Assembly: GCA_963798845.1 (NCBI GenBank)
Contig: CAWCUS010000002.1
Span: 256,001-320,000, forward strand
Source: an uncultured Gemmatimonadales bacterium
GTDB lineage: Bacteria; Gemmatimonadota; Gemmatimonadetes; Longimicrobiales; RSA9
Direction: 5' to 3'
DNA length: 64,000 nt
Every line of letters starts with the position of its first letter. The first letter of the stretch is position 1. Both the position numbers and the translations under genes were made by a program. The notes beneath the pieces were generated by a model that was given only the letters and a program-made list of their open reading frames with translations, searched no databases and was not told where the DNA came from. Of the stretch, positions 1-6,757 are shown one piece after another.

Positions 1-5
1 CGTGG

Positions 6-491
6 GTGACTTCGGCGCTCCTGGAAGCCGTGAGGGCCCAGTACGCGCTCGACTGGTACGGGATCCACGGCCTCCACCACTGGGAGCGCGTGCGGGACAA
101 CGGCGCCCGCCTGGCACCGTGCACCGGCGCCGACCCCGTCGTCGTGGAGTTCTTCGCCGCGCTCCACGACAGCCGACGTCTGAACGATGCCCGCGATCTC
201 CACCACGGCCCGCGCGCAGCCGCGTGGATCCGCACTCTCGACCCCTCCCTGCTCCCGCTCACTCCCGGCCAGATCGAGCTGCTCGCCGAAGCGTGTCGGA
301 CCCACACCCGCGGCGTCGCCACGGACGATGCTACCCTTGGCACCTGCTGGGACGCCGACCGCCTGGATCTCTTCCGCGTGGGACGCCGCCCGGACCCTCG
401 CCAGCTCGTCACCGATGCCGCCCGCGACCTCAACATCCTGGAGTGGGCCATCTCGAGGTCCGTCGGACAGCGGCGCCGCCACGCCCCGTAG
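6..491 (+). CDS. HD-domain metal-dependent phosphohydrolase (may be 5'-truncated by the window edge)
   Basis: HG..HW.RV, LHDSRR, HHG and CWDADRLDL motifs typical of small HD proteins. Confidence 0.8.
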   Translation: MTSALLEAVRAQYALDWYGIHGLHHWERVRDNGARLAPCTGADPVVVEFFAALHDSRRLNDARDLHHGPRAAAWIRTLDPSLLPLTPGQIELLAEACRTHTRGVATDDATLGTCWDADRLDLFRVGRRPDPRQLVTDAARDLNILEWAISRSVGQRRRHAP

Positions 492-573
492 GTCGAGCCA
501 GGGTCGGCCACCGCACCGAGGGGCCCTGCACCCCCCGAGCGCTGCGCACGACGAGCGCTCGCGCGCTCACACC

Positions 574-1764
574 TCAATCTGCGTCCGGGCTGCCTTCAAA
601 CAGGCCTTCCAGCGGCTCCTCGCGGGGGCCGCTGGCGTCCATGACCGCGAACGTCTTCTCGCCCGCGCCGTAGAGTGCCACGCCCGCGTAGCGGCCGGTA
701 CGGTCCAGGATGAAGAAGCGGACGTCGAAGGCCGGGCGCCCGCGGTGGTTCAGGAGGCGCGGCTCGACCGTGTTCTCGGCGATGCGACGAAGGGCGGCCA
801 TGCCCGCGTCCTTCGGCGCCAGCCCGCGTCGCATGTTCTCGACGATCAGGTAGCTCGACAGGTTGTACAGGTTCGCCTCGCCTCGCCCCGTGGAGCCCGC
901 GGCGCCCACGGCGTCGTCGACGTACAGCCCTGCGCCCAGGATCGATGAGTCGCCCACCCGCCCCGGGATCTTCCACGCAAGACCGCTGGTCGTCGTCACG
1001 CCCGCCACGTGCCCGGCCGGCGTGAGCGCGTCCAGATTCGTGGTGCCCCAGAAGGAGTGCTCGGGGATCAGCCCGTCCCGCACCATCGCCAGACCCGCAC
1101 GATACCAGGCCTCCGCTCGCGCCCGGGAGCGCGGACGGTCCGCGCCGGCGGCGTGACCGACGCGCTCGGACGGGTCGAGCCAGTGCTCGGGGTCCACCCG
1201 CCGCCGCCACTCCAGCCAGAGCGCCCTCGAACGGTCGGTGTTCAGGTCGTCCAGCACCTCGAAGCCCACGTCACGGGCGAATTCCCGGGCGCCCGCGCCG
1301 GCGATCAGGTGGTGGTCGGTCAGAGCGGCCACCTTCTGTGCGACGGCCGCCGCCGTCGCTACCCCCTCCAGCGCCGCCACGCCGCCCGCCCAGCGACGCT
1401 CGCCGTGCATGCAGCACGCGTCCAGCTGCACCACGCCGTTCGCGTTCGGCAGCCCGCCGTACCCGATCCCCGTCTCCTCGGGGTCCAGCTCCGGGATACG
1501 AACGCCCGCCACCAGCGCGTCCAGCACGTCCTCCCCCCCTTCGATCCCCCGGTACGCCCGCTCGATCGCGCTCTCCGGACCGCCGTTGCGGAACCGGATG
1601 CTGCTCACGTCCGCCACCAGCAGCGGGTCCCGCGTGCGGCGCACCAGGACCGCGGGAGCGGCGGCCCCTGAAGCCCGGGCGGTGCCCGGACGGGGGAGCC
1701 CCGCAGGGAGGGCAACGAACGCCGCTGCTGCGGCGCCGGTCTTCACGAACGCGCGACGATCCAT
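574..1764 (-). CDS. N(4)-(beta-N-acetylglucosaminyl)-L-asparaginase / isoaspartyl peptidase (Ntn hydrolase), Tat-exported
   Basis: MDRRAFVK Tat motif; GYGGLPN..G.VQLDA, GTT autoproteolysis site, TTSGLAWKIPGRVGDS, TGRGE; AGGAG SD upstream. Confidence 0.9.
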   Translation of the reverse strand: MDRRAFVKTGAAAAAFVALPAGLPRPGTARASGAAAPAVLVRRTRDPLLVADVSSIRFRNGGPESAIERAYRGIEGGEDVLDALVAGVRIPELDPEETGIGYGGLPNANGVVQLDACCMHGERRWAGGVAALEGVATAAAVAQKVAALTDHHLIAGAGAREFARDVGFEVLDDLNTDRSRALWLEWRRRVDPEHWLDPSERVGHAAGADRPRSRARAEAWYRAGLAMVRDGLIPEHSFWGTTNLDALTPAGHVAGVTTTSGLAWKIPGRVGDSSILGAGLYVDDAVGAAGSTGRGEANLYNLSSYLIVENMRRGLAPKDAGMAALRRIAENTVEPRLLNHRGRPAFDVRFFILDRTGRYAGVALYGAGEKTFAVMDASGPREEPLEGLFEGSPDAD

Positions 1765-1811
1765 GCCGGGAGCTCCTCCGGTTCGGGGGGGAAGGGGGTG
1801 GCCGGATGCAG

Positions 1812-1849
1812 GAACCCCCGGGCTCGGTCGAAACCGTTCCCGGGGGTTC
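1812..1849 (-). terminator. Strong GC hairpin closing the candidate RNA (terminator or attenuator-like)
   Basis: GAACCCCCGGG (1812-1822) / CCCGGGGGTTC (1839-1849) with inner CGGT-TTCG-ACCG on the minus strand; U-tract is weak. Confidence 0.55.
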
Positions 1850-2097
1850 GCGCCACTGGCGGCGTCGAGGACTTTCGGTTCGGTGGCCTGACCCTTCGGT
1901 CCGCCCCGCCTCGCTCACCTCACCCCTCACCGCGCGACCCGCGGCTCGGGTGCTCCCTGGCCTGAGAGCTACAGCTGCGGCCAGTAACCTCGCAGCCGGC
2001 TCGCCGATAGCCGAATCTCCGACGAGCTGCCTCCGAAAAGCGTCCCTTCCGGAAGCGACGGCGTTGATTCCTAGGTCGCGGTACCATCGCCGTCTGT
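1812..2097 (-). ncRNA. Candidate structured ncRNA or long cis-regulatory leader, family not recognised
   Basis: At least 7 back-to-back helices, several with G-U pairs that work only on the minus strand; lies between a consensus promoter and a UUCG-capped hairpin; no credible ORF. Confidence 0.55.
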
Positions 2098-2103
2098 GAC
2101 CTA

Positions 2104-2132
2104 ACGATACCACTCGCGGGTGCCCCGGTCAA
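2104..2132 (-). promoter_or_regulatory. sigma70-type promoter with extended -10
   Basis: Minus strand TTGACC (2132-2127), 17-bp spacer ending TGG, TATCGT (2109-2104). Confidence 0.65.
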
Positions 2133-2207
2133 GCATTTCGACGTGGTACGTAAGTCACTGTAATGAAACAAGTTGCGTAGGGTGGTCAGGAGGATGCAGA
2201 AACCCCG

Positions 2208-2328
2208 TAATCCACAATTCTGGCATCTTGCTACGGCGCACGGAGATCGGGTTTTGTAACAGGTCCTATTCACAGTCTAGGCCCGCCTTTCCCACACGGA
2301 ATCCACAGCCGGGCGCCGCTTATCCACA
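2208..2328 (+). promoter_or_regulatory. Cluster of co-oriented DnaA-box-like 9-mers
   Basis: TAATCCACA 2208, CTATTCACA 2266, TTTCCCACA 2288, GAATCCACA 2299, perfect TTATCCACA 2320; the last four are spaced 22/11/21 bp. Confidence 0.6.
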
Positions 2329-2465
2329 CCGACGGGCACCCATGCGTTCGCCGCGGGAGCCATGGCGCCCGGGCGTCCCGGGCGCGCCCGGCGCGGGAGC
2401 GGAACGACCGGGAGGAGAGCGGCTCGCCGTTGCATGATCCCGGATGTGGGCGCCAGCTTGTGCGC

Positions 2466-3458
2466 ATGAGCATGGTCTCGGTGCACGCGGGCGTGGACGC
2501 CGACTTCGCGCAGGACGTCCTGGGCGAGCTGTATGCCTACCGTCGCAAGCGCCTGGGGGTTGCGTGGGCGCTGTGGGCGGTTCTCGGGTGGCTCGGGGCG
2601 CACCGTTTCTACCTGGAGCGGCCGGCCACGGGGCTGGCCATGGTGGTGACCGGCGGCGGGGTGCTCCTGTGGTGGATCTCGGACGCGTGGCGGCTGCGCA
2701 GGATGGTGGAGGCGTACAACGCCGAACAGGCGCGCCGGGAGCGGGAGGGCCTTCCGCCGCTCGAGCTGGGGTTCATGCCGCCCCTGTCCGACGACGTCCT
2801 TTCACGTCCGCCCGCATGGACGGAGAAGTGGCGGGCGAGGACGACAGGGAAGCGGGTGGTTCGGCTGACCGGGGACGTGCTAGTGCTCATTGCCGCGGGC
2901 TCTGCGCTCGGCGCAATGGCGGGAAGTGTGGAGGGCGGTGCGGAGGCGGCGTTCGCGGTGGGCGCGCTCATCCTGGTGACCATGATGGGCGGGCACGTGG
3001 GGCGTTTGAACGAGATCCCGTTGGCGGGTTCACTGGTGCGCTGGAGCCACCGGCTCCGCCTGTTCTACTACTACAACCGGCCCGGCTCCCCGCCGGCGCT
3101 TCTCCTGCGGCCGGTGACGGGGCTGCTCATGGCGCCGTTCCGCCGGAAGGAGAGGGCGGAAGCGGCGCTCTACCTAGAAGTTGGGGCGGTGTTCACCGCC
3201 ATCTTCCTCACGTTCGACCTTCTCCAGGACGTGGGCGGCCCTCTCATCCAGAGCGGCCTCGGTGCGCTTTCCCCGTTTCGCCTCATCGGCCTGTGGGTCC
3301 AGGAAGCGTTCATGACGTTTCTCGTGACCTACGCCTTCGCGGCTCCGATCGGGGCCGTCCTCACCCTGTACCTGCTGACGTCACGGACCAATCGACTTCC
3401 TCGGGTTCTCGGCGGCGTGGCCCTGTTCTTCATCGCCAAAGGTGCCGGTCTGATCTGA
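2466..3458 (+). CDS. TM2/NINE-domain membrane protein
   Basis: RKRLGVAWALWAVLGWLGAHRFYL TM2 motif plus several TM helices; start uncertain (2430, 2466 or 2472). Confidence 0.75.
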   Translation: MSMVSVHAGVDADFAQDVLGELYAYRRKRLGVAWALWAVLGWLGAHRFYLERPATGLAMVVTGGGVLLWWISDAWRLRRMVEAYNAEQARREREGLPPLELGFMPPLSDDVLSRPPAWTEKWRARTTGKRVVRLTGDVLVLIAAGSALGAMAGSVEGGAEAAFAVGALILVTMMGGHVGRLNEIPLAGSLVRWSHRLRLFYYYNRPGSPPALLLRPVTGLLMAPFRRKERAEAALYLEVGAVFTAIFLTFDLLQDVGGPLIQSGLGALSPFRLIGLWVQEAFMTFLVTYAFAAPIGAVLTLYLLTSRTNRLPRVLGGVALFFIAKGAGLI

Positions 3459-3582
3459 AACGGGGCCGGCAGCCCGCCGGGCCGTCCCTGGTGGCGGACG
3501 GGTCTCCTTCTTCGGGCCGGGCGGCGCGACATGTGCAACGCTCCTATCTGTCGTAAAGACAACGGAATAGGAGGAGCGCCAC

Positions 3583-4452
3583 ATGGCACATGCAGGCAGC
3601 ATCACGGCGGCGGACAGCGGGACCTGGAAACTGGGCGGGGACCTGCCGGTTCATCGGCTCGGGTTCGGCGCGATGCGGATCGTGGGCGAGGGGGTGTGGG
3701 GGCCGCCGGCGGACCGGGAGGAGGCGCTGCGGGTGCTGCGGCGTGTGCCGGAGCTCGACATCAACTTCATCGACACGGCGGATTCCTACGGCCCGTTCCT
3801 GAGCGAGGAGCTCATTGCCGAAGCCCTGCATCCGTACCCGGAGGGGATGGTGATCGCCACGAAGGCGGGGCTGGAGCGGCCAGGTCCGGGCAAGTGGGAG
3901 CCGGACGGACGGCCCGAGCACCTTCGAAAGCGGTGCGAGGGGAGCCTGCGTCGTCTGAAGGTGGAGCGGCTCGACCTGTTCCAGCTTCACCGGATCGACC
4001 CGAAGGTGCCGGCCGCGGACCAGTTCGGGACGCTGAAGGAGCTGCAGGACGAGGGGAAGATCCGCCATGCGGGGCTGTCGGAGGCGGACGTGGAGGATAT
4101 CGAGCACGCGCGCCGGTACGTGGACATCGTCTCGGTGCAGAACCGATACAACCTGGAGGACCGGGAGTGGGAGGACGTGCTGGAGTATTGCGAGGAGGAG
4201 AAGATCGCGTTCATCCCCTGGTTCCCGCTCAGGGCCGGGCCGCTATCGGAGGGCGACGGTGTACTGGGCCAGTTCACCCGGCGCTTCGGAGCCACGCCGG
4301 CGCAGATCGCGCTGGCCTGGCTGCTCCAGCGGTCGAGCGTCATGCTCCCGATCCCGGGCACCGGCAGGGTGGCGCACCTGGAGGAGAACGCGGCGGCTGC
4401 GGGGCTGCACCTTCCCGATGATGCCATGGAGCGGTTGATGGAGGGGGGTTGA
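3583..4452 (+). CDS. Aldo/keto reductase
   Basis: [52 protein letters not shown]. Confidence 0.93.
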
Positions 4453-4687
4453 CGACGATCCACGCCATCCCCGTCGGTCGCGGATCCGGGCGGTTCGGGC
4501 GCCCCGGGTGGTGCTGGCCGATGCCCGGCGCGTCGTGTAGACTGTCAGCCGTGGAGAGGCTTCCCGATCGACCCCCTTGCAGCACGGGACCTCGTCGCTC
4601 CACGGCATCCGCTGGCACGCACGTCCTCGCCGGCTCGACGCACACGACACGGGAACAGCCTTGAACCGGAATAGCGCGCCTCATTCC

Positions 4688-6757
4688 ATGTCGTCCAGCG
4701 CGGACAACCCGCTGCTCGAGGAGTGGACGGGCCCGTACGGCGGCGTGCCGCCGTTCGACCGCGTGCATGTCTCGCACTTCCGGCCCGCGCTGGAAGCGGG
4801 CATGGCGGAGATGGAGGCCGAGATCGAGGAGATCGCCGGCACCGGGACTGCGCCGACCTTCGAGAACACGATCGCGGCGCTGGAAGCGACGGGCCGCCTG
4901 CTGGACCGGGTGGACGCGATCTACGGGGTGTGGAGCTCCAGCGTCAGCACGCCCGAGTTCCAGGCGGTGCAGCGCGAGATGGCTCCCTGGCTGGCAGCGT
5001 TCGCCGACCGGATCACGCAGAACGAGGCGCTCTTCCGCCGGATCGAGGCCGTGTATACGGGCCCCGAGCTGGACGCGCTGGCGCCGGAGCAGCGGCGGCT
5101 GGCGTGGCGGCTGTACACGAACTTCGTTCGGGCGGGCGCCAGGCTTGACGCGGACGCGAAGGCGAGACTTTCGGAGGTGAACCAGAGGCTGGCCGGGCTC
5201 TTCACGATGTTCAACCAGCACGTCCTGGGTGACGAGACCTCTCACTACCTCGTGCTCGAGGAGGAGGCGGACCTGGCCGGTCTGCCCGACTCGGTCCGCG
5301 AAGCCGCGGCGGCGGCCGCAGAGGAGAAGAGCTTGCGCGGGCGCTGGGTGGTGAGCAATACGCGCTCGTCCGTGGAGCCGTTCCTGACGTACGCCGACCG
5401 GCGCGACGTGCGGGAGCGGGCCTGGCGCATGTGGGTGGAGCGCGGCGACAGCGGCGGAGAGAGGGACACGAAGAAGATCGTCGCCGAGATCCTCGCGCTG
5501 CGCGCGGAGCGGGCGTCGCTGCTGGGCTACGCGTCGCACGCGCACTGGCGGGTCGAGGACGCCATGGCGAAGACGCCCGACCGTGCGCTGTCGCTCATGA
5601 AGACGGTCTGGCGCCCGGCGGTCGAGCGCGTGGCCGAGGAGGTGGCGGACATGCAGGCGTTGGCCCGGAAGTCCGGCGCGGACCAGGAGATCCGACCGTG
5701 GGACTATCGGTACTGGGCCGAGAAGGTGCGCCTGGCCCGATTCGACGTGGACCAGACCGAGGTGAAGCAGTACCTGCAGGTCGAGAAGCTGCGGGAGGGG
5801 ATGTTCTGGGTGGCCGGCCGGCTCTTCGGGTTCGAGTTCGAAGAGCTCGACGAGGTCCCCGTCTACCATCCGGACGTGCGCGTCTGGCGCGTGAGCGACG
5901 ACGCCACGGGTCGCCTGATCGGGCTGTGGTACTTCGACCCGTACGCGCGGGCGGGAAAGCGGTCGGGCGCGTGGATGGCGGCGCTGCGCCGCCAGGAGCG
6001 CTTCCAGGGCGATGTGCCCACCATCGTCTCGAACACCGCGAACTTCGTGAAGGGGCGCTCGAGCGAGCCCGTGCTCATCTCGTGGGACGACGCCAGCACC
6101 CTGTTCCACGAGTTCGGTCACGCCCTGCATGGCCTGGCTTCGGACGTGACCTATCCGACGCTCTCCGGCACGTCCGTCCCGCGCGACTACGTGGAGTTCC
6201 CCTCCCAGCTGCTCGAGCACTGGCTGTCCACGCCCGAGGTGCTGCAGCGGTTCGCGCTGCACTGGAGGACGGGCGAGCCGATCCCCGCCGACCTCGCGAA
6301 CCGGCTCGAGCGCTCGGCCACCTTCAACCAGGGCTTCGCTACCGTCGAGTTCCTCGCCAGCGCGCTCGTGGACATGGAGATCCACCTCGCCGAAGGGCCG
6401 ATCGACCCCGTCGCCTTCGAGCGCGAAACCCTCGCGGAGCTCGGGATGCCGCCCGAAATCGTCATGCGACACCGCATCCCACACTTCCAGCACGCGTTCG
6501 GCAGCGACGCCTACTCCGCCGGCTACTACAGCTACCTGTGGGCCGACGTCCTCACGGCGGATGCGTTCGAGGCGTTCACCGAGGCTACGGGGCCGTACGA
6601 CGCCGGGGTAGCCGGACGGCTGCTGGAGCACGTCTTCTCGCGCGGTGACACGCTGGACCCGGACGCCGGCTATGTCGCCTTCCGAGGCCGCGGGCCGCAA
6701 ACCGACGCCCTCATGCGCAAACGCGGGTTCCCCGTGCCAGAGGGCGCCGAGCTCTGA
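4688..6757 (+). CDS. dcp: M3 family metallopeptidase (peptidyl-dipeptidase Dcp / oligopeptidase A)
   Basis: NPLL..W..PYGGVPPFD, GKRSGAWM, FHEFGHALH zinc motif, DYVEFPSQ, YSAGYYSYLW. Confidence 0.92.
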   Translation: MSSSADNPLLEEWTGPYGGVPPFDRVHVSHFRPALEAGMAEMEAEIEEIAGTGTAPTFENTIAALEATGRLLDRVDAIYGVWSSSVSTPEFQAVQREMAPWLAAFADRITQNEALFRRIEAVYTGPELDALAPEQRRLAWRLYTNFVRAGARLDADAKARLSEVNQRLAGLFTMFNQHVLGDETSHYLVLEEEADLAGLPDSVREAAAAAAEEKSLRGRWVVSNTRSSVEPFLTYADRRDVRERAWRMWVERGDSGGERDTKKIVAEILALRAERASLLGYASHAHWRVEDAMAKTPDRALSLMKTVWRPAVERVAEEVADMQALARKSGADQEIRPWDYRYWAEKVRLARFDVDQTEVKQYLQVEKLREGMFWVAGRLFGFEFEELDEVPVYHPDVRVWRVSDDATGRLIGLWYFDPYARAGKRSGAWMAALRRQERFQGDVPTIVSNTANFVKGRSSEPVLISWDDASTLFHEFGHALHGLASDVTYPTLSGTSVPRDYVEFPSQLLEHWLSTPEVLQRFALHWRTGEPIPADLANRLERSATFNQGFATVEFLASALVDMEIHLAEGPIDPVAFERETLAELGMPPEIVMRHRIPHFQHAFGSDAYSAGYYSYLWADVLTADAFEAFTEATGPYDAGVAGRLLEHVFSRGDTLDPDAGYVAFRGRGPQTDALMRKRGFPVPEGAEL

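Follow-up and report, generated by a model that had tools for sequence, protein, structure and literature searches.

The window analysed here, a stretch of 64,000 nucleotides (nt) from an uncultured Gemmatimonadales bacterium, holds an intergenic gap (1765-2429) that houses an RNA gene on the minus strand (1804-2097) and is flanked by a minus-strand gene for a glycosylasparaginase-like protein (574-1764; Pfam family Asparaginase_2) and by a plus-strand gene for a TM2-domain membrane protein (2430-3458), the latter divergent from the RNA gene. Covariance model R1, which comprises 294 positions and 84 pairs, matches the RNA gene over positions 1-294 with 285 bits (R1 model position p corresponds to window position 2097-p), and we are highly confident that we are dealing with a real and new structured RNA gene. 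It is preceded on the minus strand by a sigma70-type promoter (2104-2132) made up of TTGACC (2132-2127), a 17-nt spacer and an extended -10 element, TGgTATCGT (2112-2104), in which TG occupies 2112-2111 and the -10 hexamer TATCGT occupies 2109-2104. This promoter had already been picked out in the original prediction, which was made from the letters of the DNA alone, and it proved to be the one and only sigma70-like site that a promoter scan reports between 1500 and 2700 of the window (shuffle mean 0.1). Among 43 distinct full-length homologs aligned to the model - the set to which all homolog counts below refer unless stated otherwise - the pattern TTGnnn-17/18-nAnnnT recurs at a constant distance from the RNA start in 42, with TTGAC followed by C, G or T in 32 of them and the 17-nt spacer in 35. 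Based on the distance to the -10 hexamer (7-8 nt), the 5' end of the RNA is predicted at A2097/C2096, while its 3' end probably lies near 1804, beyond a terminal GC-rich hairpin (1812-1849, minus strand; 11 base pairs (bp) followed by an internal loop and a further 4 bp under a UUCG cap) and the tail UUCCUGCAUCC that extends to 1804. Conservation among the homologs begins at a conserved CA and ends past GCAUC. With 97-99% of its cells paired and 12/15 pairs covarying (helices 16-17 of the structure considered below), the terminal hairpin, along with a UUCUUGCAUC-like tail, is retained across copies and is presumed to be a terminator without a U-run.

When folded, the minus strand of 1812-2100 reaches a minimum free energy (MFE) of -163.6 kcal/mol with z = -5.96 and 0/200 shuffles as good, and the plus strand of the same stretch gives z = -2.27 with 3/200 shuffles as good. 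RNAalifold on 11 sequences predicts 75 pairs and shows compensatory changes at 37. For a structure curated by hand, with 17 helices and 102 pairs, the alignment of all 43 homologs has 89.9% of cells paired (shuffle mean 75.5%), 86/102 pairs changed on both sides (shuffle mean 58.1) and a covariation score of 0.426 (shuffle mean 0.180), three values that 0/500 shuffles reach; if, as a control, the partners are slid by 1-3 columns, pairing falls to 36-44%. Nested helices are favoured in such a count because they are contained in the model to which the sequences were aligned; the three long-range pairings described below are absent from it and thus draw their support independently of the fit. With a folding energy that shuffles do not match, compensatory changes among homologs and no Rfam match, the proposal in the original prediction of an unrecognised, stand-alone non-coding RNA (ncRNA) of ~290 nt is thus well supported.

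The overall architecture consists of eight helices (P1-P8), hairpins in series joined by three long-range pairings (PK1-PK3), with both the 5' and the 3' end of the RNA unpaired in the consensus fold. On the minus strand, hairpin P1 (2057-2094) is built from P1a (2094-2088/2063-2057) and P1b (2086-2080/2071-2065) below the loop GCGACC (2079-2074), which provides the 5' strand of kissing pairing PK1; all of its pairs (13/13) are changed on both sides and 81-88% of cells are paired (helices 1-2). P2 (2029-2056) is a 12-bp hairpin with a near-invariant GACG loop, 92.6% of cells paired and 12/12 pairs covarying, and its closing pair is G-C in 36, C-G in 4 and A-U in 1 of the sequences. P3 (1999-2027; 91.8% paired, 8/8 covarying) exposes the loop (A/G)UUCGG at 2016-2011 as the 5' strand of PK2, and P4 (1972-1998; 98.3% paired, 5/8 covarying) carries an 11-nt loop, AGGUUACUGGC, which is the most conserved stretch of the family and whose bases 1986-1980 serve PK3 as its 5' strand. 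P5 (1952-1969; 83.5% paired, 6/6 covarying) has a variable loop with GGCCA in 24/43 sequences. P6 (1924-1950; helices 10-11, 8/8 covarying) is composed of P6a (1950-1948/1926-1924), a GAG/UGA internal loop that we read from the alignment as tandem G-A, and P6b (1945-1941/1933-1929), and its loop GGUCGC (1939-1934) supplies the 3' strand of PK1. Then comes a stretch (1866-1923) that joins linker J6/7 (1923-1914) to a P7a/P7b/P8 domain, with P7a at 1913-1909/1870-1866 and a GAAG-capped P8b at 1901-1898/1893-1890 (92.7% paired, 4/4 covarying), and in which a single strand of the P7 domain, CCGAAC (1883-1878), is the 3' strand of PK2. GCCAGUG (1854-1860), finally, partners the P4 loop as the 3' strand of PK3. 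Invariant nucleotides gather in loops and junctions, namely GAGGU in the P4 loop, GACG in the P2 loop and the tandem G-A of P6. The GAGGU bases take part in no assigned pairing, nor does J6/7, a purine linker whose composition is conserved and whose sequence is not.

As for the long-range pairings, PK1 is a kissing pair between P1 loop GCGRYC and P6 loop GRYCGC (96.8% paired) in which one pair alternates between G-C (31 sequences) and A-U (11) and the next between C-G (26) and U-A (16), with zero unpaired cells in both. PK2 links P3 loop GUUCGG to CCGAAC (91.7% paired, 4/6 pairs changed on both sides), and PK3 links P4 loop NACUGGC to GCCAGUG just 5' of the terminal hairpin (93% paired). One pair of PK3 is A-U in 32 sequences and G-C in 6; three of these six stem from the unpublished genomes G017 and G020, the rest from G002, G015 and G024, all within the window's own family (f1), and the G-C variant is present as well in homologs from families f2, f4 and f5, where 10/10 of the full-length sequences listed have RCUGG or GCCGG in the loop and CCAGC or CCGGC as its partner. 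In the distant homologs, judging from the alignment, the architecture is the same and the kissing-loop sequences are different. The conserved unpaired stretches, each 6-7 nt long (GUUCGG, CCGAAC, ACUGGC, GCCAGUG, GCGRYC, GRYCGC), pair among themselves. The helices named in the original prediction (2057-63/2088-94, 2029-40/2046-56, 1999-2007/2019-27, 1974-79/1991-96, 1952-57/1964-69, 1921-34/1940-52, 1890-1901 and the GC hairpin with its UUCG cap) all reappear, both when the sequence is folded by MFE and in the structure that the alignment supports. Its pseudoknot between CUGGCC and GGCCAG (loops of P4 and P5) finds no support: at 77.4% paired versus 76.8% in shuffles, 105/500 of which are as high, it does no better than chance, its GGCCAG side retains GGCCA in just the 24/43 loops mentioned above, and the P4 loop pairs with GCCAGUG instead.

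The RNA belongs to a family. A BLAST-type search recovered a second copy in the same genome (C3:93149-93439, 72% identical) and matches in 15/41 related genomes, several of which have two to five copies and tandem pairs. A 17-base pattern of the most conserved loop, scanned over 185,579 species genomes, gave 100 loci that were then subjected to confirmation by an nhmmer profile built from 11 homologs. Profile-confirmed loci, full-length or long partial, are without exception titled Longimicrobiales, Gemmatimonadetes, Gemmatimonadota, Gemmatimonadales or Gemmatimonadaceae; outside the phylum there are just L071 and L106, weak partial matches covering the ~20-nt motif alone, and the remaining pattern loci are chance matches of the 17-base pattern. 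Viral contigs were considered as carriers and rejected, the P4-loop pattern giving 3 loci there that each match the ~20-nt motif alone. Within f1, R1 matches occur in 58/73 genomes and 32/37 genera, at 1-6 per genome and some in tandem. An even sample of 151 Gemmatimonadota genomes, surveyed with R1 and a core model of 134 positions (R2), yielded full-length matches in f2 (9/16 genomes with R1, 8/16 with R2), f5 (8/31 with R1, 9/31 with R2) and f4 (1/71); two more R1 matches in f4 and one in f3 cover the terminal hairpin only, and in the 29 sampled genomes of f6-f12 neither model found the RNA. All these counts hold for the genomes searched and do not prove absence. The distant homologs, in three other Gemmatimonadota families, occur as single copies. 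Four rows of our alignment come from unpublished genomes, namely L009 (G016), L014 and L150 (G017) and L015 (G020).

Several observations on individual homologs and on the surroundings of the RNA gene may be added here. Among the f5 homologs (L180-L186), several are without the TTGACC promoter and without the array of DnaA-box-like sites described below, and several have a TTCAGGGAATTCCC-like near-palindrome (TTCAAGGATTCCCTGAA in L182) ~35 nt before the RNA start, at the place of the -35 element, which could be the site of another regulator or sigma factor. The f2 homologs L188, L190, L191 and L193 show a promoter of the form CCCTTGACAC...TAYCAT ~100 nt before P2 and a 5' domain unlike P1 of the window RNA, so the 5' end of the family is variable. 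Directly 3' of the RNA gene, short G-rich tandem repeats are seen at L008:1754-1790 (GGGCTG units) and L005:1396-1491 (GGGCSA/CCTGGC units). In the window, the 3' tail of the RNA is repeated directly on the plus strand at 2192-2206 (GGATGCAGAAACCCC, compared with GGATGCAGGAACCCC at 1804-1818); these 15-nt repeats are 388 nt apart, flank promoter and RNA, and have a weaker counterpart (GGTTTC..CAT) at the equivalent upstream place in other copies. In one genome, the unpublished G020, two RNA copies are spaced by 401 nt, and the direct repeat may therefore be the scar of an ancestral tandem unit of ~400 nt. Window positions 1600-2450 are listed in no RNA run and in three DNA metagenome runs of one study, two of which carry 0.21 and 0.07 of the sampled words.

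We also compared this RNA with known RNA classes. In Rfam 15 (4227 models), window 1-6000 has no match even at E<=10 and, at E<=1 on 8 homolog loci, there is no match to the RNA, the sole hit being an unrelated, sub-threshold malK-III elsewhere in L161; the novelty claimed in the original prediction thus survives this check, and with no description in the literature searched either, the family is new. RNase P RNA, transfer-messenger RNA (tmRNA) and signal recognition particle (SRP) RNA score above cut-off elsewhere in the genome (on contigs C6, C4 and C1, respectively), which is why we rejected all three as identities of the locus. A CsrB/RsmZ-type sponge was rejected, too, as the alignments show conserved GGA in the P2 loop region only, and even there it reads CGA in L005, L095 and L109, with a compensating change of the closing pair. 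Orphan large structured ncRNAs of bacteria go by names such as raiA motif RNA, OLE, ROOL, GOLLD and HEARO. Like them (for raiA, going by part of the source, PMC10861870), the new RNA is a stand-alone molecule of hundreds of nt with many covarying helices, pseudoknots, conserved nucleotides in loops and junctions and a lineage-restricted distribution. Unlike them, it is without an Rfam 15 match, is confined to Gemmatimonadota among the genomes searched and is multi-copy with tandem arrays.

Upstream conservation extends well past the promoter. For this comparison we took the 300 nt before 31 copies, namely every one of the 43 whose flank reaches 250 nt and is free of N, and left aside the divergent clade L011, L013-L016. 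In the main clade, each copy is preceded, ~180-260 nt upstream, by 4-5 helically phased sites that resemble DnaA boxes. Going from distal toward the RNA, the module consists of a single forward 9-mer (TTnTCCACA), reverse 9-mers that number three to four (TGTGGAnAA or TGTGAATT), the motif TGTTACA, a spacer in which weaker motifs occur and a CGAAA-like stretch that abuts the -35. The 9-mers match TTATCCACA, which is taken as the DnaA-box consensus rather than derived from the data here. In the window, five 9-mers of this kind form an array on the plus strand (2208-2328) whose placement and phasing are conserved across the 31 upstream regions: box 1 (2208-2216, TAATCCACA), box 2 (2266-2274, CTATTCACA), box 3 (2288-2296, TTTCCCACA), box 4 (2299-2307, GAATCCACA) and box 5 (2320-2328, TTATCCACA), the last four at spacings of 22, 11 and 21 nt. 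The TGTTACA motif (2255-2261, minus strand) lies ~164 nt ahead of the RNA start, with the nearest box 12 nt away; it is found at -159 to -165 in 26/31 copies, and the other five, from which the exact 7-mer is absent, read CGTTACA where visible in the alignment. Counted from TGTTACA, box-like pentamers follow at -12, at -33, then at -44/-45 or -54 to -57, then at -65/-66 or -75 to -77. Successive pentamers are 21-22 nt apart in 48/78 cases and 10-12 nt apart in 17/78, and at such spacings the sites share a face of the helix. The spacer itself (-160 to -75 of the 31 copies) has no consensus structure (0 pairs in RNAalifold), so by this test the upstream region is not a second structured RNA. In many copies, GTAAC / GTTAC half-sites ~19 nt apart surround a TTG...CAA element at -80 to -50; their GTTAC core recurs in TGTTACA at -164, they are degenerate in the window (GCAAC...CTTAC, ~2140-2185, minus strand), and they are possibly the operator of a second regulator.

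If box clusters are defined as at least 3 boxes within 150 nt, each with at least 7 of 9 matches and CACA kept, the 4.26-Mb genome has just four. The densest, with 5 boxes, is the one upstream of the window RNA (C2:258208-258320); 4 boxes each are found upstream of the second RNA copy (C3:93525-93673) and in the gap between dnaN and dnaA (C6:472791-472928), and 3 boxes, TTGTCCACA twice and TTATCCACA once, in a lower-GC intergenic stretch 9.5 kb from that gap (C6:482509-482616). The three densest box clusters of the genome are therefore its two RNA loci and the dnaN-dnaA region. Strict boxes amount to 2.45 per 300 nt in the 31 upstream regions, as opposed to 0.17 in shuffles (max 0.39 in 200) and 0.068 per 300 nt genome-wide. 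The dnaN-dnaA gap (C6:472700-472984, followed by dnaA at C6:472984-474411) is likely the chromosomal origin, and we note in it ~8-10 GTGGA/TCCAC cores, including TTTTCCACG and TGTGGAAAA. Conversely, we rejected the window locus as oriC: cumulative GC skew on its contig C2 is monotonic through the window, with no minimum or turning point, and dnaA is on contig C6.

Clustered DnaA-box-like sites outside an origin are not without precedent, as illustrated by DnaA-box-controlled sda and the DnaA-box clusters (DBCs) of B. subtilis and by datA and DARS of E. coli. What the RNA loci share with these are clustered, phased sites of this type adjoining a promoter; what sets them apart is that the adjoining gene specifies no protein but a large structured RNA and that 1-6 modules occur per genome at a fixed distance of ~164 nt from the RNA start. 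In the literature searched, we found no description of a phased DnaA-box array before RNAs of the raiA/OLE/ROOL/GOLLD/HEARO type, nor of the new RNA or of DnaA-box-linked structured-RNA genes, although supplements of two 2026 genome-language-model preprints might list such clusters; as far as the main text of one 2026 preprint of this kind goes, it makes no mention of Gemmatimon- or Longimicrob-. The Caulobacter ncRNA CcnA modulates the cell-cycle regulators CtrA and GcrA, according to the part of the source at hand (PMC8959179). The new RNA resembles CcnA in being an ncRNA linked to the cell-cycle or replication machinery and, going by the same part of PMC8959179, differs from it in that no mRNA targets of the CtrA/GcrA type are known.

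What might such an RNA do? On balance, we lean towards a stand-alone ncRNA of a new family that acts in trans through its shape and whose transcription is set by DnaA. A housekeeping-type promoter would drive the ~290-nt RNA and the GC-rich hairpin would end it, upon which three long-range Watson-Crick contacts would lock its eight helices into a compact shape. Since all long conserved single strands are consumed inside the fold, the RNA may work in trans by way of this shape, serving a protein as scaffold or decoy or binding a small ligand, and not by antisense pairing. In the main clade, including the genome studied here, the phased box array, TGTTACA, a ~160-nt spacer of fixed length and the promoter would together make up the control region before each copy, and from the rigidity of this upstream module we infer that DnaA, putatively bound at the array, may set RNA transcription. 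The RNA level would thereby report replication-initiation status. The sda checkpoint gene of Bacillus is controlled by DnaA boxes, and the logic envisaged here would be akin to it, with an RNA taking the place of the effector. The narrower proposal that the RNA is a DnaA-controlled, shape-based decoy or scaffold is one we put forward tentatively, as a possibility that falls short of being probable.

A number of points weigh against this explanation. That the gene is transcribed, and that its RNA has the ends given above, are themselves deductions from DNA, and a scan for consensus terminators found none at the RNA 3' end because there is no T-run. P7 and P8a are just 62-67% paired in the model-based alignment, which makes their register uncertain. 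The boxes are degenerate, with 7-9 of 9 matches to a consensus that is assumed. Clustered consensus-box matches near the promoter, conserved among homologs, are found in the main f1 clade only: the array is missing upstream of the divergent f1 clade (L011, L013, L014, L015, L150) as well as from most f2, f4 and f5 homologs, and DnaA control is therefore not part of the core function of the RNA. At the window locus, moreover, the array could serve the divergent TM2 gene, or be shared with it, as it is placed between that gene and the RNA.

Other explanations tie the RNA to its genomic surroundings. In the original prediction it was alternatively seen as a regulatory leader of the glycosylasparaginase gene that starts at 1764, and indeed the RNA ends ~40 nt before the asparaginase start on the same strand, with a weak hairpin tail that may permit read-through. 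The asparaginase neighbour is kept solely in same-genus genome G001, however, as is the TM2 neighbour in a same-genus genome, and elsewhere downstream genes are unrelated or, at several loci (e.g. L126, L127, L131, L135), convergent. In a Pfam scan of 68 flanking open reading frames (ORFs) at 37 loci, families are unrelated and none recurs beyond orthologous loci. Because flanking genes vary between loci and often converge, the RNA gene is an independent unit and not a leader for the asparaginase gene; we rejected assignment to a riboswitch or cis-leader class on the same grounds, and a cis role of this sort is scarcely conceivable. Such varied contexts, along with tandem duplicates and the 15-nt direct repeat that brackets promoter and RNA in the window, would suit an RNA of mobile origin, for instance a guide RNA, a bridge RNA, a fragment of a retron or intron, or a small self-copying element that is non-autonomous. 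Yet neither transposase nor integrase, reverse transcriptase, TnpB/IscB, IS110 or Rep is among these 68 ORFs, which argues against a mobile-element RNA and led us to reject the group II intron, omega/bridge RNA and retron msr classes; with the two copies of this genome just 72% identical and hits on viral contigs reduced to the ~20-nt seed motif, we regard mobile origin as highly improbable. It may also be asked whether it is the DNA that matters, with box arrays titrating or recharging DnaA in the manner of datA, DARS and the B. subtilis clusters and transcription merely modulating binding. That the genome's top three box clusters are found at the origin region and at its two RNA genes speaks for this, as do boxes that are phased helically as in origins and the many boxes that 1-6 loci add per genome. 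It is nonetheless very improbable in our view, given that the RNA structure itself is under strong selection, that homologs persist without arrays and that the window locus lies off any GC-skew turning point, with dnaA on another contig.

The remaining alternatives concern the mode of action of the RNA. Tandem families such as Qrr, PrrF and OmrA/B are known among base-pairing small RNAs (sRNAs), and a stand-alone, multi-copy and partly tandem unit with promoter and terminator may be viewed as another one, annealing to mRNAs through an exposed seed, with J6/7 and the GAGGU loop bases free for this purpose and copy number serving as dosage. But 290 nt, 17 helices and three covarying long-range pairings exceed the needs of a seed carrier, the conserved 6-7-nt single strands pair with one another, and the purine linker is conserved in composition rather than sequence, all of which makes a seed sRNA unlikely. 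In mycobacteria, Ms1 takes over the role of 6S RNA, and the new RNA is close in size to this Ms1 RNA, which is known from Actinobacteria. A similar stand-in that binds RNA polymerase to store or inhibit it would fit with a stand-alone RNA of the abundant type that, like 6S and Ms1, has a strong promoter of its own and in whose carriers canonical 6S is undetectable. The 6S model RF00013 gave 0 matches in the whole genome and none in sampled f1 (0/1), f2 (0/16), f4 (0/71) and f5 (0/31), i.e. 120 genomes counting the window's own, with the limit that this model is insensitive (4-5 of 14 control genomes detected); in these families, 6S is either very divergent or replaced. Apart from one weak match in f3, detection of RF00013 was in f10 (4/13), f11 (3/3) and f12 (3/3), where the new RNA was not found. 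Against a 6S stand-in, 6S is a rod with a central bubble and paired ends, whereas the new RNA is a hairpin series with unpaired ends, three pseudoknots and no RF00013 match, R2 has no match to six 6S loci, and f4 as a rule has neither RNA (no detectable 6S in 71/71, the full-length new RNA in just 1/71), so the two distributions are not complementary. With 6S complementarity this weak, we think a stand-in quite unlikely. So, to a similar extent, is a ribozyme or other RNA with chemistry in a conserved pocket: a compact, pseudoknot-locked fold and invariant nucleotides in loops and junctions (GAGGU, GACG, tandem G-A) would be in keeping with it, but there is no similarity to Rfam ribozyme families, neither a cleavage-site signature nor a processing context is seen, and the distribution is patchy with redundant copies.

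Large bacterial RNAs locked by several pseudoknots are rare, and the ones understood to date have central roles such as catalysis, protein targeting and the guidance of genome elements. With the RNA family described here comes a new fold that is well supported and stems from a little-studied phylum of soils and sediments, and the three covarying tertiary pairings of this fold provide detail enough to guide probing and cryo-EM. The unexpected part of the finding is the upstream module: the strongest DnaA-box clusters of this genome outside the origin are reserved for the two genes of the RNA, and returning to our favoured explanation of a shape-based RNA whose transcription DnaA may set, this module ties the replication initiator to a structured RNA in a way that can be tested directly. 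Whether it stands for a wider, undescribed class, in which large folded bacterial RNAs behind phased DnaA-box arrays make up an arm of the DnaA regulon whose output is RNA, we consider doubtful; if true, such a class would couple replication-initiation status to another process of the cell or feed back on DnaA.

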